Shown one piece after another: positions 34,669 through 62,350 of a stretch of 64,000 nt of DNA. Within the stretch, counting starts at the first letter, position 1; every line of letters begins with the position of its first letter. The position numbers and the translations under genes are program-made. The DNA comes from Scyliorhinus canicula (lineage: Eukaryota): NCBI RefSeq assembly GCF_902713615.1, contig NW_024055720.1, forward strand, positions 1 through 64,000, read 5' to 3'. The notes under the pieces are model-generated. The model did not search any database and had not been told where the DNA came from. It was given only the letters and a program-made list of their open reading frames with translations.

Positions 34669-35269
34669 TGTGGAGATGCCGGCGTTGGACTGGGGTGAGC
34701 ACAGTAAGAAGTCTTACAACACCAGGTTAAAGTCCAACAGGTTTGTTTCAAACACGAGCTTTCGGAGCACGGCTCCTTCTTCAGGTGAATGGAAAGGCTT
34801 GTTCCAGAAATGTTTATATAGACACAGTCAGAGATGCCCCGGAATGCGAGCACCTGCAGGCAATCAAATCATCAAAGATGCAGAGAGAGAGGTAACTCCA
34901 GGTTAAAGAGGTGTGAATTGTCCCAAGCCAATTCAGTCGGTAGGCCTCTGCAAGTCCAGGCTTGTTGGTGGGGGCCGAATGTCGCATTACATTCGGCCCC
35001 CACCAACAAGCCTGGACTTGCAGAGGCCTACCGACTGAACTGGCTTGGGACAATTCACACCTCTTTAACCTGGAGTTACCTCTCTCTCTGCATCTTTGAT
35101 GATTTGATTGCCTGCAGGTGCTCGCATTCCGGGGCATCTCTGACTGTGTCTATATAAACATTTCTGGAACAAGCCTTTCCATTCACCTGAAGAAGGAGCC
35201 GTGCTCCGAAAGCTCGTGTTTGAAACAAACCTGTTGGACTTTAACCTGGTGTTGTAAGACTTCTTACTC
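34669..35269. mobile_element. Penelope-like element terminus arranged as a near-perfect palindrome
   Basis: 280-bp arms 34703-34982 and 34989-35268; same sequence family as the termini at 56284 and 61000-61425; flanked by direct repeat TTCTGATTTTATGA. Confidence 0.85.
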
Positions 35270-35829
35270 TTCTGATTTTATGACAGCAGGTCTCAGTTGT
35301 TACTGTACTCGGCTCAATCCCAGCTGTTTATATGCTGAAGCAAGGACCACTTTATATTACACTAAGTACATAGGAAGTTAGTATAGCATGGGGTCATATC
35401 TCAATTATTATTACAATTATAATCTTTATTGTCATAAGTAGGCTTACATTAACACTGCAATGAAGTTACTGTGAAAAGCCCCTAGCCGCAACACTCCGGC
35501 AGCTGTTCGAGTACACAGGGGGAGAATTCAGAATACCCAATTAATCTCACAGCACGTCTTTCAGGACCTGTGCGAGGAAACGGAGCACCCGGGGGAAACC
35601 CACGCAGATATGGGGAGAACACGCAGACTCCACGCAGTCATTGACCCCAGCCGGGAATCGAACCTGGGGCCCTGACGCTGCGAAGGAATAGTGCCAACCA
35701 ATGTCATAGTCTATGTCTAAATTGTTACCTCACTAGATTCAATCTCCACGGATACTAAACCAGAACATGTTTCTCTTTGTATTACCTGAGCCACTGTCTC
35801 AGTTATTGCTTTACCTGAAGCTGCCACGT

Positions 35830-45903: not shown

Positions 45904-48900
45904 TCACTTTGATTCTGCCTCTGTGAACAGGGTCACAAAGGGGTTGCCGTGTCGGGAGTCAGACACCGTGTCGTCCTGCTCTCCCGGATCCCACACCCTT
46001 GTGTGGATCAGGCATGCTATTTTGGAGTTGTGTGACCGGGGGTCACTCTCGTCATTGCGGACAAGTCTGTAGGAATTGTCCCTGTGCCATTGTGTAGCGT
46101 CGAGTGTGTTGTCGGGGTAGTCGGGGTCGGGTGGTGGTTCGGGGTTTTTGAGGTAAGTGACTTCCATGGGGTCACTGGAGTCGGGGTCGTAGTTGGTGCA
46201 GTGTGGGCTGTATGGCTGTGTGCTGTCGCTGTCTTCAGAGTCAGTGTCTGTCCTACTGTCTCTGCTGTGGCAGCTTGTGGGCGTGTCGGGGCGTGGTCTG
46301 TAGTGGTCTGTGGGCGGAGTCGTGGGCGAGTCCGTTGATGAACTGGTCTGTGAGGGGGATGGTGGAAAAGTGTTTCTGGTGGGCGGGGTGAAGTGTTCTG
46401 CTGCATCCAGCAGGACATGGTGAGCATGGTTGGCCTGTGTTCCATATGCCTTCAACTGGTTTATATGGAACCACGCGGTCTTCCCATTAGGATACTTTAT
46501 CCTGTAAACGGAGGGGCTAATTTTGTCCGAAATTGAGTAGGGACCGGAATATTTTGGAGCCAAAAAACTGCTGGGGTTATAAACAGATAACATTACCTGT
46601 TGCCCAACCTGGAATTCTGTGGTGTGTACGGTATTATTGAAACAGGCAGTACGTTGCTGTCGGCGTTTCCCTAGCTGGACTGCGGCTGCGAGCTGTGCAG
46701 ACCTCACAGTCTCAACTAGATCTTTAACTGCCTTTTCATGTGTGAGGGCCGTCACTTCGGGGCTTGTCATGTCCAGTCCTAAAAGGAATTCTGTACCTTT
46801 CATAGGGCGTCCGGTCATGAGTGTGTGTGGTGTGTATCCTGTCGATGTGGAGACAGTGTTCCTTATGAACATAAGTGCAAAGGGGAGCACTGAATCCCAT
46901 GTGGAATTGTTCTCTTGAACCATTTTTCTGAGGGTAGTTTTTAGGGTCCGATTCATGCGCTCCACAATCCCGCTGGACTGTGGATGATACGCAATGTGGA
47001 AGTTTTGTTTGATGCCGAATATTGTCAGGACGTTCCTCATGACCCGTCCTGTAAAGTGAGATCCCTGGTCCGAATCGATACTTCGGGGTAAACCCCATCT
47101 CGTGAAGATGTGGTGGGTCAGGATCTTTGCAGCTGTCTTAGCTGTGTTTGTTCGTGAGGGAAATGCCTCTACCCATTTGGTAAAGGTATCTATCACCACC
47201 AGAACGTATTTATAGCCATTCCTACAAGGGGGCAATGGACCTATAAAGTCGATCTGGAGGTTTGTCCAAGGGCCGTTAACTGGGCGAGTATGCCGAAGTT
47301 GTGCCTTCTTAGAATACCGCTCCGGGTTATTCTGAGCACAAATCAGGCAATTCTCTATGTAGTGCGTTACATCATTCCTGAGATTAGGCCACCAACAGAG
47401 TTGCCTGAGGTGCCTCGTTGTTGCATCAATTCCCTGATGCCCGTGTCCGTCATGGAACAAGGCAATCATCTGATTCCTGTCCTGCTGTGGGACCACATAA
47501 AGTCGGTCCTTAATGATCACACCCTCATGTGTGGTCAGTGCGTGTTTAAAGTGCTCGTAAGCAGGCACAAAGTTTCCCTTGAAAACCTCCCTGAGGTCTC
47601 CGTCCTGTTTTTGTGCTGCCACGAGATCTTTAATATCAGTCTGTGAGACTTGGACTGCGCTCACAGGGGCGCTAGCTGGTGCGCTAGCTGGGGGGGTCCA
47701 TAAGTGTCCTCTCCTGGAACCTGCCTTAGCCAACGCGTCGGCTTTTACATTCCCAGGGGGTGATGACCTATGGTGGCTGCAAACTTTTATAATGCCGAAG
47801 GTCCTGTCCTTCGCTTTCTCTAGGATATGCTGGAGTAAGGGGGCTGATGGAAGGGGTTTTCCGTCTGCGGAGACAAAACCTCGTGTCCTCCACAGGGGCA
47901 GAAAATCTGTCAGGCTATTGCATACATATAGGCTGTCTGAATATATGTCTGCTGGGCTGGGGAAAGAATCGGGGTGGTCCACTATGTACGCTATGGCTGC
48001 TAGCTCTGCTGCCTGCGCGCCTAAGTGACCTGGTAACTTAAGAGCGATTTCTTCGAGAGCGCGCCCCTGCGCGTCCTCTACATAGATGCCGCATCCTGTG
48101 ATACGCTCACCATTTAAAACTGTGGAGGAACCGTCTACATAAATCCTCAAGGGTCCACACGTGTCTGTGGGCTGGGGGCTTTGTTTCGGGTTCCCTATCT
48201 TCCTGGGGGGTGTTTTTGCTAAAAAGGGTCCTGTGTTATGCAGGGGAGCTACAATTTCACAGTCATGGGGCTGTCCGGGGTATTGGAGGTTGTCTGCTAA
48301 GTATGTGTGGGTGCGTGTCCGTTTCACTGTAATGTCCCGTCCTTGTAAAAGTAGGGTCCACCTGGCTGCCCTAATCTGGCTAACTGAACCGTCCTTCAGT
48401 CGACCGTCTAGTAGTAGCTGTGTGGGTGTGTGTTCGGTTAGAATGGTGATGGGGTTGAGTCCGGTGATGTATGAGAAATACTGCACTGCCCAGAAGACAG
48501 CAAGGAGGTGCCTCTCACAGGCTGAAAATCCTTGTTCTACTGGGTCTAACAGTCGGGAGGCATAAGCCACTGGTCTTAGCTGCTCGTGCCGTTCTTGAAG
48601 CAACACGGCCGAGAGGGTCAGATCTGTGCTCGCTACCTCTATTGCGTACGGTGAAAGTTGGTCGGGGACTAGCAGCGCGGGTGCTGCACTAAGGGCTCGT
48701 TTTAACTCTTCCACAGCCTCTGTATGCTGCGGAAGCCATTCCCAGGGGGCTCCTTTCTTAAGGAGGTCTGAAAGTGGGGCGGCTTTTGTCGCGAATCCGT
48801 CGATGTGGTTCCGACAATAGCCAACCAGTCCTAAAAACGACCGGAGGGCTGAAACATTCTGGGGAAGGGGCAATTTGACGATCGAATCAATTCTTTTGAA

Positions 48901-50130
48901 TTCGATCTCGCGTTTGCCGTGCGTGATGACTGTTCCCAAATACATCACTTTACTTTCCAATATTTGGGCCTTTTTCGGGTTAACTTTACAGCCAATTTCA
49001 GTTAAGAGTTCCAGGAGTTCGGCCAGAAGCGAAATGTGCTCTGCCTTTGTGTCTGTCTGCAGTAGTAGGTCGTCTACATACTGTACCAGACATTCGGGTC
49101 GGGAAAATTTCTCTAATCCACTTGCCAGCTGTCGGTGGAAAATGGAGGGTGAATTGTGGAATCCTTGTGGGAGGCATGTCCACGTGTACTTCTGAGTTTT
49201 AAAAGTGAATGCGAATTTGTATTGGCACGCTTTTGCCAATGGTATGGACCAGAATCCATTACTGATGTCCAATACCGTGAAGTACTTGGCGTTGAGACCC
49301 TGCTTGAGCATGGTCTCGGGACTAGTAGCTACCGTTGGGGCTACTGCGGGGGTTACTTTGTTGAGTTCCCGATAATCGATGGTCAGACGCCATGATCCAT
49401 CGGGCTTCCTCACTGGCCAAATAGGGGCATTGTTGGTGGAGGCTACCGTTCTCAGTACACCTTGGTCCAACAAGCTGCCTATAACCTTTTCTATTTCCAC
49501 CTCTGCCTCGAGGGGAAATCTATACTGCTTTTGCGGTCGGGGGTCCTGTCCGGTAACATGAACTTGTCCAGTCATTCTGCCACAGTCATGATGGTGACTT
49601 GCAAATGCTGTCCTGTGTTTGTTTAGTAGGGCCTTAATTTGTCGGTCGGTGTGGAGCGTAGTCAGGTCGAATGAGTACTCTCCCACTGCGCTAATCCGAT
49701 TAGCGTAGTCTCCTACTGTGAGGGTGGCTGGGGCTCTGTCGGATCTCGCCATTCGCCAGACACACTGGTTCACTGGGTCGAACGACAAGCTGTGTGCGTT
49801 CATGAAATCGATCCCCAGGATGTGTTCTGCTGTCCGGGGAAGATTTACTAAAACTACGGGGTGCCTTGTGCTAATGTTCCCTAGCTGGATCGCTACGGGT
49901 GCTGTGATATGTCCCTGCTGCGAGTGTCCGGTGAACCCGCTAAGTGTGATGGTGGAGGTGGTCGGCCACGTGTCTGCGTGTGCCGTGGTTGTGGAGTTAA
50001 TGGTGGTGCGGGATCCTCCTGTGTCCCACAGTAACTCTATGGGCTTCCCTTTGACTTTTGCCGTGACTACGGGCCTCCCTGATGAGTCCCATAGTGTGTC
50101 ACAGACCCAAGTGGGGGAGCCCGAACACCG
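45904..50130 (-). CDS. pol: Pol (PR-RT-tether-RNase H-IN), in frame with gag after a UGA
   Basis: LLWDTGG protease (50017-50025); LPQGFHNSP and YVDD in RT; degenerate RH; second RH with YVDGSS / AELAA / YSDS / KADALA; HHCC, D-D-E and GPY integrase motifs. Confidence 0.95.
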   Translation of the reverse strand, partial: RCSGSPTWVCDTLWDSSGRPVVTAKVKGKPIELLWDTGGSRTTINSTTTAHADTWPTTSTITLSGFTGHSQQGHITAPVAIQLGNISTRHPVVLVNLPRTAEHILGIDFMNAHSLSFDPVNQCVWRMARSDRAPATLTVGDYANRISAVGEYSFDLTTLHTDRQIKALLNKHRTAFASHHHDCGRMTGQVHVTGQDPRPQKQYRFPLEAEVEIEKVIGSLLDQGVLRTVASTNNAPIWPVRKPDGSWRLTIDYRELNKVTPAVAPTVATSPETMLKQGLNAKYFTVLDISNGFWSIPLAKACQYKFAFTFKTQKYTWTCLPQGFHNSPSIFHRQLASGLEKFSRPECLVQYVDDLLLQTDTKAEHISLLAELLELLTEIGCKVNPKKAQILESKVMYLGTVITHGKREIEFKRIDSIVKLPLPQNVSALRSFLGLVGYCRNHIDGFATKAAPLSDLLKKGAPWEWLPQHTEAVEELKRALSAAPALLVPDQLSPYAIEVASTDLTLSAVLLQERHEQLRPVAYASRLLDPVEQGFSACERHLLAVFWAVQYFSYITGLNPITILTEHTPTQLLLDGRLKDGSVSQIRAARWTLLLQGRDITVKRTRTHTYLADNLQYPGQPHDCEIVAPLHNTGPFLAKTPPRKIGNPKQSPQPTDTCGPLRIYVDGSSTVLNGERITGCGIYVEDAQGRALEEIALKLPGHLGAQAAELAAIAYIVDHPDSFPSPADIYSDSLYVCNSLTDFLPLWRTRGFVSADGKPLPSAPLLQHILEKAKDRTFGIIKVCSHHRSSPPGNVKADALAKAGSRRGHLWTPPASAPASAPVSAVQVSQTDIKDLVAAQKQDGDLREVFKGNFVPAYEHFKHALTTHEGVIIKDRLYVVPQQDRNQMIALFHDGHGHQGIDATTRHLRQLCWWPNLRNDVTHYIENCLICAQNNPERYSKKAQLRHTRPVNGPWTNLQIDFIGPLPPCRNGYKYVLVVIDTFTKWVEAFPSRTNTAKTAAKILTHHIFTRWGLPRSIDSDQGSHFTGRVMRNVLTIFGIKQNFHIAYHPQSSGIVERMNRTLKTTLRKMVQENNSTWDSVLPFALMFIRNTVSTSTGYTPHTLMTGRPMKGTEFLLGLDMTSPEVTALTHEKAVKDLVETVRSAQLAAAVQLGKRRQQRTACFNNTVHTTEFQVGQQVMLSVYNPSSFLAPKYSGPYSISDKISPSVYRIKYPNGKTAWFHINQLKAYGTQANHAHHVLLDAAEHFTPPTRNTFPPSPSQTSSSTDSPTTPPTDHYRPRPDTPTSCHSRDSRTDTDSEDSDSTQPYSPHCTNYDPDSSDPMEVTYLKNPEPPPDPDYPDNTLDATQWHRDNSYRLVRNDESDPRSHNSKIACLIHTRVWDPGEQDDTVSDSRHGNPFVTLFTEAESK

Positions 50131-51879
50131 TCAGTTCGTCTCGTCCACATTGGTGGGTCCTGACTGTACTGCTACATTGTGGATGGGTTTTGCCTTACTG
50201 CGGTTCAGAGTGCCTGTCTGCTGGCCTCTCTGAGATCGCTGGGGTGCATTACACTCTTTTGCCCAATGCCCTAACTGTCCACAGTTATAGCATTCCTGTC
50301 CTTTCTGTTGAGGGCTGCTCTTGCCTTCATTTACCCATGCGGGCTTCTGGTGCTCTCTGACTGCTTGGATATCTGCAGCAGCCTGAGCCTCTTCTGGGGA
50401 TCTAACCTTTCCTTTTGCCTGAAGCGATTGCTCCCAAGCGCGGGACAATCTTTTCAGGACCCATTTTTCGTTATGGGCCTCTTCTGAGGGGTCGTAATTA
50501 TTGCAAGCGCTCTGTCCTGCTTCTGTTGCGTGTGAGATAATTGTGCGCGTCCACTTAACCATGTTTTCGCGGGTTAAATGCGCTCTATCTAGCTGTCCGA
50601 AAACTGCGCTGAAGTGAATCCACAGCCTTCCTGCGAATGCTGTGGGGTGTTCGGATCTCTTCTGCCTGCACTTATTCAAGCCTTCTACGGGGTCACCTCT
50701 ATTGTACCCGATGGCATCTAAAATGGCAGTGTGCATCTCCTCTAGGCTGCCTCCTGCCACGTTTTGTGGGTCGGGGAGGGCTGCCACTACACTCTGGTCT
50801 AAGCTCAGCACGGTGAGCTTAACCTGCTCTCTCTCATCCAGGCCGTACATGGTAGCCTGCTGTTTTACTTTAGCGAAAAACTGGTGGGGGTCTGCGGTGG
50901 GGAGGAACGGAGTGATCTTTTCACAAGCGTCCCTTAGCTGGGTTACTGTTAAAGGGGTGGTGTAAGTTATGTCTGGGGCGCCTTCTGATTCGGCTTTCCT
51001 CTGTGTGGTTACGGGATTCATGGGTGCGGTTATGATCTGAGCTGGGGGGGGTTGGGGTGCCTGTCGTTTCTGCTGAGCTGCTGGCGCACATGTTCCCTGA
51101 ACATAACGCTGCGCTGTCTCGCTTAATTCCTGCCAATCTGGGGCGTTTTCCCCATCTAACTGAGCTCCAAAGGTGCTTTGGAAGCCATTCTGCACCGAAA
51201 GCAGAGATTGCAGTTCCGCAATCTGTTTCCTGCATTTCGCGTGGTCAACTGTGCTTTGTCTTTGTTCGGTCGTTGCAGCGTGGAGTGCTCTCAAAGCTGC
51301 TTTGAGATCGGAACATTGCCTCTGCAATGCCTCCACCTGCTTTTCCGATTCCTGTCTTATCAGAACGGCACGTTGCACGTCCTGATAGGCTTTCTCATAC
51401 TGGGTCTGGGAACTGTTCAGATGAGCTAGACAAGACTGGTGAGCCCTCTTGGCATCATCCACCTCTCTACCCTTCTCTGCCAACTTCCCTTTTAATTCCA
51501 GGTTTTCTTTCTCGATGTCCCTGACATCGACCTTACTCATTCGGTTCCTTTCCTCTAAATCTGCCCGGAGCGTCCTGATGACCTCCTCTGCGCCTCGCAA
51601 CTGTGCCAAGCAGGACACAATCGCCATCGGCTTGCGTGCTTTACCTAAACTCTTTTTGTGTATCTGAGAGAGGTTCTCCCACCAAGTATGACCTATACTC
51701 CCGGGACCTGTCTCCTCATTTGCACAAAACTCTTTCCAAAGGGGCCATCCCTTTCCTTGTAAATATTTGCGGAGTTCCAGCTCCCACGTGGGACACTGGC
51801 CTACTCTGCTACTGCTGCTGGTCGCTGCGACCACAAACTTTGCTGGATCCATCAGACGTTCCATTGCCTGCATGGCCAT
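50131..51879 (-). CDS. gag: Gag, 582 aa
   Basis: Long central coiled-coil-like region, capsid-like region and one CCHC knuckle CYNCGQLGHWAKEC. Confidence 0.9.
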   Translation of the reverse strand: MAMQAMERLMDPAKFVVAATSSSSRVGQCPTWELELRKYLQGKGWPLWKEFCANEETGPGSIGHTWWENLSQIHKKSLGKARKPMAIVSCLAQLRGAEEVIRTLRADLEERNRMSKVDVRDIEKENLELKGKLAEKGREVDDAKRAHQSCLAHLNSSQTQYEKAYQDVQRAVLIRQESEKQVEALQRQCSDLKAALRALHAATTEQRQSTVDHAKCRKQIAELQSLLSVQNGFQSTFGAQLDGENAPDWQELSETAQRYVQGTCAPAAQQKRQAPQPPPAQIITAPMNPVTTQRKAESEGAPDITYTTPLTVTQLRDACEKITPFLPTADPHQFFAKVKQQATMYGLDEREQVKLTVLSLDQSVVAALPDPQNVAGGSLEEMHTAILDAIGYNRGDPVEGLNKCRQKRSEHPTAFAGRLWIHFSAVFGQLDRAHLTRENMVKWTRTIISHATEAGQSACNNYDPSEEAHNEKWVLKRLSRAWEQSLQAKGKVRSPEEAQAAADIQAVREHQKPAWVNEGKSSPQQKGQECYNCGQLGHWAKECNAPQRSQRGQQTGTLNRSKAKPIHNVAVQSGPTNVDETN

Positions 51880-52174
51880 TTCCTCTGACTCTCTTTTTAT
51901 AATTTGGAACAGGGGGTTGCTGGGGTGGTGTTTCGTAAAAAGGGTACGGCTTACGCTATTTTCCGATCACAAAACTACCGAAAGTTTGTCGCAACAAAAA
52001 GCTTTCAGTTTTACCTTACAGCCCTGTTAGTACGCATGCACTAAACACACTTCCGAATTTCGCTTATTATTTTGAACACCTTGAATACTTGTGATCTCTT
52101 TCTTTCTCTGCAATTTGGAGTTCTGATTCAAATTTCAGGGTCCTGGACACTGTGGTGTTTCCACTTACAACAGG

Positions 52175-52192
52175 ATCCCACCAGAGTCGCCA
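52175..52192 (-). promoter_or_regulatory. Primer-binding site, tRNA-Arg(UCU)-like
   Basis: TGGCGACTCTGGTGGGAT lies 5 nt after the 5' LTR and is complementary to a tRNA 3' end ..UCCCACCAGAGUCGCCA (vertebrate Arg-UCU as recalled). Confidence 0.75.
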
Positions 52193-52197
52193 CTAAA

Positions 52198-53146
52198 TGT
52201 TGCACGTTTTACTATGGGCGTAAAACGCGTTTATTGGAGTGTATTAACACGCCTCCGAGTTCGACGTGTGCTTAACACTGCTAGGCTCTGTTCTATGTAA
52301 TTATTTAGCTCTGGAGTCGCCAGCTGCCGTATAGGCAACGTCACAAGTATTCCAAGGTCAAGTTCAAAGTAATAAAGACAATACACCGATTAGTCAAGTT
52401 CAAACGATCAATATTTATTATACAGTTAATAATAAATACTCATGCACACACTAAGAGACTAAGCTACAACTAAACATAAGCAAACAGAATACTTATCTAA
52501 CAGGAACAGGCAAGGTCAGAGAACGAGGCCTTCGTCCTGGTTTTGTCTGCAGCCTTCAGCAAGCGTTCTGGCACTTGGGAGTCTAGCGGGCTTGGATCGC
52601 GTAGCGAGCGTTGAACTTACGGTTTCGGCGGCTGGTGCTCAACGGCTGGAGTCAGGATACCAGGTGTCAGTCGGGGCCGGAGCACAGGTTTAACAGACCG
52701 GACAACACGAGGTCCCTATCTTTTATAGGGGTTCCGTTGTCCTTCCCTCTTCTCGGGCGGGCTCTACCTATTGGATCAATTTCTTATCGATACTGGATTA
52801 ATTCCCCAATGCGAGGGGGTCTCCGTGATGGAGGGGGCGTTTCTTATGTCCTTTTGTTTGGAGGTTTCTGGTGCCTCGATGTCTGGGTCTTGATTGGAAT
52901 GTGTCCATTCAGAACCAAATGTATCTATTGTGTGGGTGTTCAAGTCTGATGGCCTCATTAGCATGCAAAGCGTTTTGCCATTTGCACCTAGCTAAGGTCT
53001 TTTCACCTGAGCCCAAACTGGTTTCTGCTGCTGCAGAATGCAAACTGCTCTTTGCAGACTGCTGTTCTGGCTGAACTGTCTGTTTCTCAGCAGCCTTCCA
53101 TTTTAGTTTGGCTCAGTGTCCATTTTGCGTGGCCAGCATGGCTACA
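52198..53146 (-). repeat. 5' LTR
   Basis: Only 2 differences from the 3' LTR seen by eye; TATAAAA on the minus strand at 52721-52727. Confidence 0.95.
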
Positions 53147-53435
53147 GACCCAAGCCGGAATCAAACCTGGGACCCTGGAGCTGCGAAGCGATTGTGCTAT
53201 CCACAATGCTACCGTGCTCCCCACGGTAGCAATTAAAAGTCTAATGATGAGCATGAAACCATTGTCGTGTGTAATCAAAACCCATCTGTTCACTGATGTC
53301 CTTCGTAACTAGTCTGACCTACGTATGACTCCAAATGACCCCACAGCAATGTCATTGACTCTGAAATGCCCTCAGGGATGGGTACGATCAGCCAGCGACA
53401 TCCACATCCCATGAACGAATAAAAAGTATTTAGTC

Positions 53436-54059: not shown

Positions 54060-55235
54060 AGTTAAAGAAAATTACAGCACAGGAACAGGCCCTACGGCCC
54101 TCCCAGCCTCCGCCGATCCAGATCCTTTATCTAAACCTGTTGCCTATTTACCAAGGTCTACTTCTCTCTGTTCCCCACCTGTACATATATCTGCCCAGAT
54201 GCATTTTAAATGATGCTATCGTACCCGCCTCTACCACCTCTGCTGGCAAAGCATTCCAGGCACCCACCACCCTCTGCGTAAAGAACTTTCCATGCACATC
54301 TCCCTTAAACTTTTCACCTCTCACCTTGAAATCGTGACCCCTTGTAACTGACACCCCTACTCTTGGAAAAAGCTTGTTGCTATCCACCCTGTCCATACCT
54401 CTCATAATTTTGTAGACCTCATTCAGGTCTCTCCTCAACCTCCATCTTTCCAACGAAAACAATCCTAATCTACTCAACCTTTCTTCATAGCTAGCACCCT
54501 CCATACCAGGTAACATCCTGGTGAACCTCCTCTGCACCCTCTCCAAGGCATCCACATCCTTCTGGTAACGTGGCGACCAGAACTGCACACAGTATTCCAA
54601 ATGTGGCCTAACCAAAGTCCGATACAACTGTAACATGACCTGCTGACTCTTGTACTCAATACCCAATCCGATGAAGGCAAGCATGCTGTATGCCTCCTTG
54701 ACCACTCTATCAACCTGCGTTGCCACCTTCAGGGTAGAATGGACCTGGACTCCCAGATCTCTCTGGACATCGATTTTCCCCAGGACTCTTCTATTGACCA
54801 TACAGTCTGCTCTTGAGTTAAATCTTCCAAAATGCATCACCTCGCATTTGCCTGGATTGAACTCCATCTGCCATTTCTCTGCCCAACACTCCAATCTATC
54901 TGTATTTTACTGTATTCTCTGACAGGCCGCCTTGCTATCTGCAACTGCATCAATCTCAGTATCATCTGCAAACTTGCTCATCAGACCACTTATACCTTCG
55001 TCCAGATCATTTATATATATCACAAACAACAGTGGTCCGAGCACGGATCCCTGTGGAACACCACTAGTCACCTTTCTCCATTTTGAGACACTCCCTTCCA
55101 CCACTGCACTCTGTCTCCTGTTGCCCAGCCAGTTCTTTACCCATCGAGCTCGTACACCCTGAACCCCATACGACTTCACTTTTTCCATCAACCTGCCATG
55201 GGAAACTTTATCAAATGCTTTACCGATGTCCATGA
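54060..55235 (-). mobile_element. CR1 LINE 3' fragment
   Basis: [43 protein letters not shown]; frameshift at ~54900. Confidence 0.92.
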
Positions 55236-56645
55236 TTGTGGAAAGCTTCTTGAGATTTGTTGAAGCTGCTCTCCAGACAAGTGGAGAGTATTCCATTACA
55301 CTTCAGACTTTTGCCCAGCAGGTGATGGACAGGCTTTGGGCAATCGGGATGTGAGTTACTCGCCACAGGGTTTCTACCCTTTGAACTGCTCTGGCAGCCA
55401 CAGCATTCGTCTGGCTTGTCCAGTTCAGTTTCCGGTCAATGACAACCCCCAGGATGTTGATTGTGCGGTAATCAATGAAAATAAATCTGGCGCATTATTC
55501 TGTGGGGCAAGACTTCAGCCGTGAATGAAATTGAGTCTAACAAAATAATATCAGAGAATGGGCTCAACATAATATAAATGGAGACTTGCTGCAGTTGAAC
55601 AACTGCTCCGAAATGGTGTCTTCTTACATATATAGCAGCATGGATTCATGCATCAATTAATTAATCCGCACATAATGTAATATTAATAGATATAAGGTCT
55701 AATGCAATGATTAAAAAAGAGTCAATTGCAGTAGAGAGAGGTGTTGCTCAGTGCATTTCTGAATGTGACTGCATCTATTTGTTAAAACAGTAAACACAGT
55801 CTCGTGCAGTCATAACTGAGAATGGGTGAATTGTAGTATGTACAGAAACATGGTCCTTCTTATTCAAATGTTTATCTGTAGATAGAATTATATACACAAA
55901 TACAATGCTGGGGGAAAGGTAAAACGAAACATGGTCCTGTACAATCATTCCAGAGACAAGACCAAGTATAATAAAACTTGGTACACGGTTAAGTACAGTG
56001 ATAACTGAAGCAGGGATTAATGTAATACTACGAAACACAATGTGCAGTAAAATATAAATAAATACATGGTCTAACTACAAGTAAAAACTCAACTAGAGTA
56101 AATTATTCAGGCCACAGAAGCATGATCTAATGTATTAATAACTGGAATAATATCTAAAGATATAAACACTGAGAGGGTCTAATTTAGAGAGAACTGAGAA
56201 AGGACCTATTTTGTTTTAAACAGAGATATGGAAGGGTGCGGTAATAAATGAGATGTAACCCATTGCACGATTAATATTATAAAAAGTCTTACAACACCAG
56301 GTTAAAGTCCAACAGGTTTTTTTCAAACCCTCGCTTTCGGAGCACTGCTCCTTCCTCAGGTGAATGAAGAGGTATGTTCCAGAAACATGTATGTAGACAA
56401 TTCAAAGATGCAAGACAATGCTTAGAATGCGAGCATTTGAAGGTAATTAAATTTTTACAGATCTAAATGGATCTTGTGGGGGGGACGACTTACCAGGGGT
56501 AAGCCATGGGGTACGGGCCTCTGGCACGGAGTCTGTCCCTGTTGCTCAGAAGGGAAGGGGGGAAAGGAGTAGAACATTAGTAATTGGGGACTCAATAGTC
56601 AGGGGCACAGATCGGAGATTTTGTGGGAGCGAGAGAGACTCACGT

Positions 56646-59923: not shown

Positions 59924-61621
59924 AAATTTATTGGATAAGCATATGGATGATAAGGGCATAGTGTAGGTTCGATGGCCTTTAGATTTTTTCCATGTCGGTG
60001 CAACATCGAGGGCCGAAGGGCCTGTACTGCGCTGTATCGTTCTATGTTCTAAAGATAGGGGTAACCCCAGGTTAAAGAGGTGTGAATTGTCTCAAGCCAG
60101 GACAGTTGGTAGGATTTTGCAAGCCCAGGCCTGATGGTGGGGGATGAATGTAATGCGACATGAATCCCAGGTCCCGATTGAGGCCGCACTCATGTGTGCG
60201 GAACTTGGCTATAAATTTCTGCTCGGCAATTCTGCGGTATCGCGTGTCCTGTAGGCCGCCTTGGAGAACACTTACCCGGAGATCAGAGGCTGAATGCCCT
60301 CGACTGCTGAAGTGTTCCCCGACTGGAAGGGAACATTCCTGCCTGGTGATTGTCGCGCGATGTCCGTTCATTCACTGTTGCAATGTACCACACTACGGGA
60401 CATCCTTTCCTGCAGCGTATGAGGTGGACAACATTGGCCGAGTTGCACTAGTATGTACCTAGTGGGTGGTGTTCTCACATGTAATGGTGGTTTCCATGTC
60501 AATGATCTGGCACATCTTGCAGAGATTGCCCTGGCAGGGTTGTGTAGTGTCGTGGTCGTTGTTCTGAAGGCTGGGTAGTTTGCTGCCAACAATGGTTTGT
60601 TTGAGGTTGCGTGGTTGTTTGAAGGCAAGTAGTGGGGGTGTGGGGATGACCTTGGCAATATGTTCATCTTCATCGATGATGTGTTGAAGGCTGAGAAGAA
60701 GATGTTGTAGTTTCTCCGCTCCGGGAAAGTACTGAACAATGAAGGGTACTCTGTCGGTTGTGCCCCGTGTTTGTCTTCTGAGGAGGTTGGTGCGTTTTCT
60801 TGCTGTGGCGCGTTGGAACTGTCGATCGATGAGTCAAGCACCATACCTCATTCGTGTGAGGGCATCACTCAGCGTCTGTAGATGTCTGTTACGCTCCTCC
60901 TCGTCTGCGCAGATCCTGTGTATATGGAGGGCTTGTCCATAGGGGATGGATTCTTTAGTATATTTAGGGTGGAAGTGGAGAAGTGGAACATTGTGAGGTG
61001 ACCCGCAACAACGCAGAATCGCTGAGCAGAAACATATAGCCAAGTTCCGCCTACATGAGTTCGGCCTCAACTGGGGCCTGGGATTCATGTCACATTACAT
61101 TCATCCCCCACCATCTGGCCTGGGCTTGCAAAATCCTACCAACTGTCCTGGCTTGAGACAATTCACACCTCTTTAACCTGGGGTTACCCCTATCTCTGGA
61201 TCTGTAAAGACTTAATTACCTGCAAATGCTCGCATTCGAAGCATTGTCTGGCATCTTTGACTTTGTCGATATATATGTTTCTGGAACATACCTCTTCATT
61301 CACCTGAGGAAGGAACAGTGCTCCGAAAGCTAGTGTTTGAAGCAAACCTGTTGGACTTCAACCTTGTGTTGTAAGATTTCTTACTGTGCTCACCCCAGTC
61401 CAACGCCAGCACCTCCACATCATGATTAATATTGGTATTGTCTCGCACAGTAATAACTAAAGCAGAGAGAATCGCATCATTTATAAGTACAGAAACTGGC
61501 ATTAAATAAACAGAGCCGGCGGTGTACCGGAATTATTAAAACAAGGATACAAGTGGAGACAGTGCAGTGCAGTAGAAACCGAGAATTTCCTCACACAGTC
61601 CAAAGATGCGCAGGTTACATA

Positions 61622-62350
61622 GGACATAGAACATTACAGTGAAGTACAGGCCCTTTGAACCTCGATGCTGCGCCGACCTGTAAAACCACTCTAAAGCCCA
61701 TCTACACTATTCCCTTATCGCTCATCTGCCTATCCAATGACCATTTGAATGCGTTTAGTGTTGGCGAGTCCACTACTGTTGCAGGCAGGGCATTCCACGA
61801 CCTTACTACTCTCTGAGTAAAGAATCTACCTCTGACATCTGTCCTATATCTATCTCCCCTCAATTTAAATCTATGTCCCCTCGTGCTGGACGTCACCATC
61901 CGAGGAAAAAGGATCTCAATGTCCACCCTATCTAATCCTCTGATCATCTTGTATGCCTCAATTTAGTCACCTCTTAACCTTGTTCTCTCTAACGAAAACA
62001 GCCTCTAGTCCTTCAGCCTTTCCTTGTAAGATCTTCCCTCCGTACCAGGAAACATCCTTGTAAATCTCCTCTGTACCATTTCCAATGCTTCCACATCCTT
62101 CCTCTAATGTGGCGACCAGAACTGCACGCAATACTCCAAAGCCGGCCGCACCAGAGTTTTGTACAACTGCAACATGACCTCATGGCTCCGAAACTCAATT
62201 CCTCTACCAAAAAAAGCTAACACACCATACGCCTTCTTGACAATCGTCTCAACCTGGGTTGCAACTTTCAGGGATCTATGGACATCGACACGGAGATCTT
62301 TCTGCTCGTCCACATTGCCAAGAATCTTACCATTTGCCCAGTACTCTGTC
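61622..62350 (-). mobile_element. CR1 3' fragment
   Basis: KKAYGVLAFFGRGIEFRSHEVMLQLYKTLVRP; same subfamily as 56468-60047. Confidence 0.9.

Follow-up and report, generated by a model that had tools for sequence, protein, structure and literature searches.

A high-copy element of Scyliorhinus canicula as a likely env-less endogenous retrovirus of the snakehead-retrovirus-like group, with a small predicted membrane protein in the env position

What kind of element carries two successive RNase H folds in its Pol, keeps its reading frames open and lacks a normal env? The question is raised by a 9,850-bp element on the minus strand (43297-53146) of a 64,000-nucleotide stretch of the Scyliorhinus canicula genome (contig NW_024055720.1, positions 1 to 64,000), which we call the window. 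A preliminary description, made from the letters of the window, saw in it an intact, deep-branching and possibly undescribed retroviral lineage. We confirm what was observed, and the interpretation is supported in part, the lineage having been described already. Our answer, which we hold at a probability of roughly 0.72, is that the element represents a high-copy env-less endogenous retrovirus (ERV) of the basal snakehead retrovirus (SnRV)-like group, of which it is a young and intact insertion, with germ-line retrotransposition as its likely mode of spread and a small predicted membrane protein as its likely accessory. The dual RNase H that first drew attention is ordinary for retroviruses; the membrane gene in the env slot, a second tRNA site and the size of the family merit following.

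The Pol polyprotein and its placement

The Pol frame (45904-50130, minus strand, 1,408 codons) was confirmed. It is real, as first described, but has no start codon of its own and lies in frame downstream of the gag TGA; its first methionine is residue 110, beyond the protease DTG at 36. The order of domains is protease, reverse transcriptase (RT), RNase H and integrase. An aspartyl protease with DTG (49795..50079; Pfam match over residues 18-112) is followed by an RT with LPQG and YVDD (48739..49539; RVT_1, E 5e-34). Next come a Ty3-like RNase H fold, the tether (48343..48738; RT_RNaseH_2 over residues 465-562, E 1e-21; RT_RNaseH over 493-596, E 5e-18), and a second RNase H (47716..48147; PF00075 over residues 662-805, E 5e-15, 56.5 bits against a cut-off of 25.8). 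The integrase (46444..47493) has HHCC and D-D-E motifs, Integrase_H2C2 and rve matches and an SH3-like C-terminus, where the SH3_Tf2-1 match is slightly below its own cut-off. The low-complexity Pol tail (45904..46443) has a ratio of nonsynonymous to synonymous change (dN/dS) of 0.18-0.34 in 14 pairs of copies, and selection thus persists there.

The two RNase H folds are as the preliminary description had them, the first broken and the second complete, and both score in the profile searches that it had proposed. Relative to Ty3 Pol (7q5b), all three catalytic acids of the tether are replaced, D by A in EVAST, E by H in CERHLL and D by E in TEH. The second domain keeps its four acidic residues, D, E, D and D, in YVDGSS (664), AQAAEL (705), YSDS (730) and KADALA (796). 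The RT of murine leukemia virus (5dmq, 4hkq) aligns in a single stretch that spans RT, tether and RNase H (E 1e-68); the Ty3 alignment stops at the first RNase H. A tether plus a second RNase H is a textbook retrovirus trait. The domain order with both folds is retroviral, and this Pol does not have the single active RNase H of Metaviridae.

The remainder of the element carries the other hallmarks of a retrovirus, namely long terminal repeats (LTRs), an 18-nt tRNA primer binding site (PBS), a polypurine tract (PPT) and a target-site duplication. The 5' LTR (52198..53146, with TG...CA termini and a TATA-like box near 52721-52727) and the 3' LTR (43297..44245) are each 949 bp long on the minus strand and differ at 2 of 949 sites. 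The PPT lies at 44246..44255, and GACC is duplicated at 43293..43296 and 53147..53150, inside a SINE-like (short interspersed element) repeat that the insertion has split. With a borrowed rate of 0.5e-9 per site per year, the one assumed for a shark in PMC10699275, the LTR mismatch would place the insertion about 2 million years ago. The element was rightly called intact.

For placement, a search of 1.84 billion representatives supplied 201 reference proteins with enough coverage. We chose 82 of these for an RT tree, leaving out redundant Gypsy rows, and 79 entered; a tree of RT plus tether has 47 rows. As anchors, the RT of P0080 equals the SnRV row in the supplement of PMC7947760 except at one visible residue, that of P0081 is close to the Loki-Pma row there, and P0083, from Labeo rohita, carries loki motifs. 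The RT tree puts the element within the canonical retroviruses (support 100/98) and outside the lokiretroviruses (100/100), and the RT-plus-tether tree again puts it within the canonical group (100/99), so that the claim of a true, deep-branching retrovirus-type Pol is borne out. In the RT tree its clade (95/90) has 16 rows, among them Pols of frogs and coelacanth, unnamed Pols and P0110. In the RT-plus-tether tree it forms part of a 12-row clade (81/79), whose sister group consists of the remaining 24 canonical rows and contains both SnRV and foamy viruses (95/86). The unnamed P0005 is its sister row in the RT, RT-plus-tether and integrase trees and forms a three-row group with it in the RNase H tree. 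Over RT-RNase H the best matches, at 45-51% identity, come from Pols of frog and coelacanth that bear the label 'NYNRIN-like'; databases also name relatives 'Gypsy retrotransposon integrase-like'. A scan of viral contigs with RT-RNase H returned no relative.

One alternative, for which the Gypsy label speaks, takes the element for a lokiretrovirus, for an Odin element or for a Gypsy element that has a second RNase H. A dual RNase H without env is defining for Odin, the sister of the lokiretroviruses (PMC9040795), both integrase and tether give high scores with loki-type proteins, and features of Gag resemble those of retrotransposon Gag. However, the RT lacks the loki motifs CPFGY..SPAEFNIF of the PMC7947760 alignments, and approximately unbiased (AU) tests reject a grouping of the element with loki RTs (p 1.5e-4) and with Gypsy (p 7e-9). 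The RT did not fall inside a known Gypsy clade. As to the paramyxovirus F-type env that is a loki trait, the three downstream open reading frames (ORFs) gave no PF00523 match, and none is of env size. We give this reading practically no credence.

A foamy affinity fares no better. Foamy viruses have no Cys-His box, a pol with its own start and a GGGTG junction of PPT and LTR (PMC5210030, PMC8278194); the element has a CCHC knuckle, no methionine before DTG and the junction GGGAATG. Grouping its clade with simian foamy virus is rejected at AU p 0.019, a value obtained with one long-branch reference and no fish foamy-like endogenous retrovirus (FLERV) in the tree. The spuma or loki affinity suggested by the RT motifs first noted is therefore rejected on both counts, and with the foamy affinity set aside the CCHC knuckle is no longer puzzling. 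On these trees and motifs, we read the element as a canonical retrovirus and not as Gypsy, loki or foamy.

The lineage is also not new. Han 2015 (PMC4422223) reported that lineage I of the elephant-shark ERVs, CmiERV, clusters with SnRV. In coelacanth, SnRV-like ERVs form the predominant class, and amphibians and elephant shark also have them (PMC4977317); elements of this kind have been filed as SnRV-like or as clade Huo (PMC4977317, PMC6001957). An env-less SnRV-like element is known from a frog (PMC4131045), and a shark element has been placed with fish FLERVs (PMC10699275). By eye, the CmiERV lineage I sequence in the supplement shares with our element a repetitive, coiled-coil-like Gag with one CCHC knuckle and a TGA near the end of gag, and in Pol the motifs LDISNGFW and LPQGFHNSP, the tether CERHLLA and a second RNase H. 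P0110, in the clade of the element, has an RT nearly the same as that of lineage I (again by eye) and is about 48% identical to the element family. Because lineage I shares these Gag and Pol motifs, the dual RNase H and the deep position are real and already known. The suggestion of an undescribed lineage thus falls, since a described ERV of near-identical architecture largely exists.

Family spread and the small gene in the env position

We searched the 4.2-Gb genome for further copies and numbered their loci from L001, with L001-L020 as the best-scoring. An exact 25-nt pattern at the gag-pol junction has 1,122 genomic matches, giving a family of at least 1,122 copies; patterns at the LTR-PBS junction have 1,018 and 648. 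The 20 best copies are 97-98.5% identical to the internal region of the window element, and copies chosen by PBS type extend to about 76-85%. Thirteen of the 20 have parsed LTR pairs, which differ at 0-3 sites (zero in six); ten of these 13 have exact 4-bp target duplications. About half of the 20 have both gag and pol open. Against older copies, dN/dS is 0.05-0.09 for gag (15 pairs), 0.04-0.08 for RT-RNase H and 0.04-0.09 for integrase (14 pairs, as L048 has no pol). The family offers a basal retrovirus in numerous young and intact copies, unlike the old, broken copies of this branch.

None of the 35 parsed loci among 48 has an env. In these loci the integrase end and the PPT are 2.15-2.42 kb apart, and no ORF past the integrase exceeds 189 codons. 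We therefore file the element under the env-less ERVs, of which others are known (PMC4131045, PMC8278194), and not under the infectious retroviruses. That it lacks a normal env was correctly noted, but its env position holds a 117-codon ORF (44577..44930, minus strand) with signs of selection and membrane-protein features. The protein starts MMEAH or MKTTS and has a signal-peptide-like start, a Pro/Thr/Ser stalk with one N-glycan sequon and a membrane-proximal segment that forms a conserved aromatic, mildly amphipathic helix. One hydrophobic span with a conserved Glu comes after it; seven Lys or Arg lie within the 15 residues past the span, and the tail ends in SPIFGFHQ. About 55 residues precede the span, and there are two ectodomain cysteines. 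The single span is called from hydropathy and the structure model, which has a predicted local distance difference (pLDDT) of 61 and a predicted template-modelling score (pTM) of 0.28.

Selection on this ORF is seen at several depths. Its best 150 genomic matches are 98-100% identical and without stops, and among L001-L020 it is full length in 16, shifted in one and unparsed in three. Its dN/dS is 0.11-0.28 in 15 pairs, with Fisher p of 3e-7 to 2e-5 in three pairs; values for the remaining sense frames, taken over six pairs, are 0.98-5.5, and those for the antisense shadow frame 0.36-0.55. An older sister family (Pol about 79% identical) has a homologue, 58% identical over 77 residues, in 12 of 12 loci; it retains the span, with the aromatic segment before it and the basic patch and the tail behind it. 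The first cysteine is missing there, so the small protein has no conserved cystine loop. It has no Pfam match above cut-off, Atlas hits of at most 0.88 and no homologue outside the source genome. We found no prior report of such a small ORF in the env slot, in a literature search with subscription papers and repeat libraries beyond reach. ORFs of 107 and 114 codons between pol and LTR were set aside as genes, their noisy ratios being mostly near 1 with no consistent selection.

Because it was selected while the element had no env, the small protein likely serves the element's own cycle. By origin it may be a reduced env or an accessory gene of unrelated source; 12 env loci of this genome gave no match to it. 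We lean slightly towards a membrane adaptor, with a part in assembly, trafficking or host-defense modulation, and not a receptor-binding fusion protein. Roles of other kinds appear doubtful, and a fusogen somewhat more so. A bolder reading makes it a fusogen like the FAST (fusion-associated small transmembrane) proteins or the small-ORF products called sORF2, which would replace env and let the element pass from somatic to germ cells without an envelope. Its gene occupies the env slot of an env-less lineage and is selected, and the protein is single-pass with its conserved aromatic, amphipathic helix next to the membrane; at 117 residues it is within the range of 60-210, and its seven Lys or Arg compare with a criterion of at least three after the span (bioRxiv 2025.03.14.642691). 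That preprint describes such transfer for env-less Drosophila elements, and two of its six sORF2s have no myristoylation motif. Its sORF2-like proteins come from insect retrotransposons, nackednaviruses and picornaviruses, with no vertebrate Retroviridae case in the accessible portion (10.1101/2025.03.14.642691).

However, the small protein lacks the MGxxxS/T motif, its ectodomain is not short and uncleaved, and it has neither a conserved cystine loop nor a sequence relative, its Atlas hits all being below 0.9. Its N-terminus resembles a signal peptide that would be cleaved off, with a glycosylated stalk behind it, and in this it departs from FAST proteins. In its fullest form, this reading would have a vertebrate retrovirus swap its env for a 117-residue, capsid-moving membrane protein, the first Retroviridae counterpart of sORF2 and FAST, which would have carried it to well over 1,000 copies; it would also hold its primer tRNA at two sites. 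We consider the reading improbable, in this form as in the simpler one. Under either role, an env-less element that keeps a surface-type protein would point to a new accessory function or to envelope-independent transmission in vertebrates.

Several points weigh against a young, SnRV-like family that spreads without env. L001-L020 lean young because they were picked as best matches, and the copy pairs share ancestry and hence are not independent. The trees were built without Odin, class II, fish FLERV or verified ERV-L rows, and CmiERV lineage I is present through its stand-in P0110. The best trees put SnRV elsewhere in a basal polytomy, and a single clade of SnRV and the element's clade is unrejected (AU p 0.054 and 0.062), so that 'SnRV-like' is used here as the broad label of the literature. 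The tether scores 70-80 bits against loki-type proteins and 29 against SnRV, and the integrase 217-220 against 114. Finally, other ERVs with env are present in the same genome (78 scored matches), so that help in trans is possible.

Two alternatives draw on these points. One makes the element an undescribed lineage, sister to all other canonical retroviruses and apart from the SnRV-like group, as the RT-plus-tether topology and the loki/NYNRIN-like integrase might suggest. Its clade, however, holds kin of the lineage published in 2015, and the SnRV grouping stands unrejected; the basal position may be real and the lineage nonetheless sampled before. We regard this as highly improbable. Of the separate trees proposed at the outset, that of RT is firmly canonical, but those of RNase H and integrase were built by a quick method and leave their bases open. 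For short coverage, the RNase H tree has no SnRV or foamy rows, and in the integrase tree the element, its relatives and loki stand in one open fork. The loki integrase has been read as a separate replacement (PMC7947760); the loki-like integrase of the element's clade bears on whether that type is ancestral to both groups, as it may be.

The other alternative, which we find very unlikely, is that the family reinfects with Env borrowed from another ERV, the small protein being a leftover or a helper. Env-bearing ERVs with long open frames do exist in this genome, and complementation in trans is a known route (PMC10435555). Yet the integrase ends beside these envs are 27-41% identical to the element's, and 12 env loci share no DNA with the element family and none with the small ORF. 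Retrotransposition in cis needs gag and pol only (PMC10435555), and with its own gag and pol under selection the family needs no helper for it. Retrotransposition in cis is the simplest reading of the spread.

Other observations concern the family and its surroundings. Four loci (L047, L048, L049 and L027) are internally deleted: they have lost pol but retain the leader and the small ORF together with part of gag, and are likely non-autonomous derivatives. Five same-strand PBS matches at 18-29 kb spacing (G000 C1:48303711-48387564) look like an array or segmental amplification of older copies. A multi-copy ERV family unrelated to the window element (L066, L068, L072, L073 and L076, on G000 C4, C1, C7, C9 and C3) has a gamma-type env with ISD and CX6CC, its frames open to about 565 codons.

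Gag-Pol expression, tRNA priming and the leader

How would such an element express its Pol and prime its DNA? Its gag (50131..51879, minus strand, 582 residues) has a predicted coiled coil at about 84-237 and a capsid-like region; the structure model gives helices only, at low confidence (pLDDT 46). As first described, there is a CCHC knuckle, a single one (50251-50292, E 1e-7). The in-frame TGA of gag, read UGA-CGG-UGU and followed by a predicted stem-loop (50000..50133), is a candidate readthrough signal. Of 1,122 matches with exact flanks, 1,118 have TGA as the junction codon, and so do 20 of 20 young copies, all 14 parsed of 28 older copies examined and the sister family; CGG TGT always comes next. 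The junction fold has a z of -2.36, with three of 200 shuffles folding as well or better. UGA CGG with a downstream stem-loop is a tested readthrough signal of Venezuelan equine encephalitis virus and Colorado tick fever virus, and the latter also has UGA CGG UGU (PMC13517186). Known retroviral contexts are UAG-GGC in SnRV and other UGA contexts in salmon swim bladder sarcoma virus, the zebrafish ERV ZFERV and a frog ERV (PMC13517186), and the junction of XtERV-S is TGA (PMC8278194). UGA-CGG readthrough thus likely yields Gag-Pol here, in a context like that of alpha- and coltiviruses, found in a retrovirus.

The PBS (52175..52192, minus strand) is complementary over 18 nt to the 3' end of tRNA-Arg(UCU). 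One PBS type is complementary to the 3' ends of tRNA-Arg(tct) genes with introns, which ARAGORN calls at L024 and L040. The PBS of the window is complementary to another Arg(UCU)-like sequence, one missing from the ARAGORN calls. Leaders were parsed in 38 of 48 loci; the PBS is bulged by 1-2 nt in 30 of these and of the 18-nt form without a bulge in the other eight, as would be expected if each round copies the tRNA end into DNA. A few PBS copies read like other Arg isoacceptors. The bulged form prevails in most copies although each round should convert toward the exact one; as a speculation, bulged forms might evade silencing by tRNA fragments.

A second site (52115..52132) is complementary to the anticodon arm of the spliced tRNA-Arg(UCU), across the intron junction. 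It lies 43 nt past the PBS in the window, where it has one extra mismatch. In copy L001 it has a 12-nt exact match that none of 1,000 mononucleotide shuffles equalled. It is present in 38 of 38 parsed leaders and, in worn form, in the sister family. Among 18 loci fetched for long tRNA matches, nine are linked to the element and carry, from PBS to second site, intron-less tRNA-Arg(UCU) sequence. Mature tRNA was therefore copied into proviral DNA, and strand transfer can use the second site. The tRNA probably also pairs there through its anticodon arm; the site may help normal priming or be a retained fossil. Extended tRNA contacts are known in HIV-1 and Ty1. A literature search on the second site listed HIV-1 papers and one tRNA review. 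With DNA footprints of tRNA copying up to it, this second pairing site downstream of the PBS is now testable. In two other or interrupted elements, L032 (near 9732) and L041 (near 9427), intron-less tRNA-Arg(UCU) with CCA was likewise copied as far as the anticodon loop; such an overrun may thus be a general trait of this primer.

The leader also has, at window 52024-52032, a perfect branch-point and acceptor motif (TACTAACAG) closely followed by a donor-like GTAAG. It is found in nearly all leaders and in the sister family and suggests leader splicing. Between pol and the small ORF lies a non-coding spacer (45045..45900, minus strand) with a 77-nt tandem repeat and candidate splice acceptors, AG at 45466 and 45281; acceptor-like motifs are present in 13 of 13 aligned rows. 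Divergence at 45150-45490 is several-fold below that of synonymous sites, and no coding frame of the spacer is under consistent selection. The consensus fold has covariation in 2 of 99 pairs, so we claim no structure, and Rfam gave no match at gathering level. The stretch 45150-45490 lies where env-less ERVs would have an element for RNA export or packaging. Contigs from four sequencing runs, presumed RNA, cover 30 of 30 bins with no joint fitting the leader splice, and neither expression nor splicing can be deduced from them. A contig break at 45044 in three runs was dismissed as a splice site, as no AG precedes it.

Taken together, the cycle might run as follows. Full-length RNA would be translated to Gag, with occasional UGA-CGG readthrough to Gag-Pol. 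The tRNA-Arg(UCU) would prime at the PBS, probably also held by its anticodon arm 43 nt on. The tether would merely position the second RNase H, which would degrade the RNA strand, and the integrase would insert the DNA, so that the element would multiply by retrotransposition within germ-line cells. The small protein, made from an env-type spliced RNA, would enter the secretory pathway and may act through its membrane-proximal segment and tail as a membrane adaptor.

Elsewhere in the window, segments at 54148-55302 and 62036-62335 adjoining the element are, judged by their translation, fragments of CR1-type reverse transcriptase from long interspersed elements (LINEs). Also in the window, a near-perfect inverted repeat of 285 bp (34698-35273, 99%, 6-nt gap) has kin near 56280, 60048 and 61000-61423; this palindrome resembles a miniature inverted-repeat transposable element or a LINE end.

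Comparison with known systems

The nearest described relative is CmiERV lineage I, which differs from our element in its gamma-type env, its broken pol and LTRs 3.3% apart. The family of the window has no env, an Arg PBS, more than 1,100 young copies and the small ORF. The PBS of lineage I reads as tRNA-Ser.

SnRV is like the element in its RT (50% identical), shared motifs and tether plus RNase H. It also makes Gag-Pol by stop readthrough (PMC13517186), which in the element is predicted from sequence. Unlike the element, it is exogenous, has an env and several accessory ORFs (PMC12193657), uses a UAG-GGC stop and has an integrase 29% identical. The frog and coelacanth 'NYNRIN-like' Pols (P0003, P0004, P0006, P0007) and P0005 have the same domain set and belong to the same clade. 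SnRV likewise has an Arg-tRNA PBS and a large Gag coiled coil.

Lokiretroviruses and Odin share the tether, the second RNase H and a similar integrase, and Odin is also env-less. They differ in RT clade and motifs, and the element has no paramyxovirus-like env. Lokiretroviruses were found in none of three chondrichthyan genomes (PMC7947760). For the small gene, the closest parallels are sORF2 of the Drosophila MDG1 group and the reovirus FAST proteins, which are likewise small and single-pass with a polybasic patch, sORF2 also residing in an env-less mobile element. The small protein of the element differs from both in having no myristoylation motif, a signal-peptide-like start, a gene in the env position and no sequence similarity found to either.

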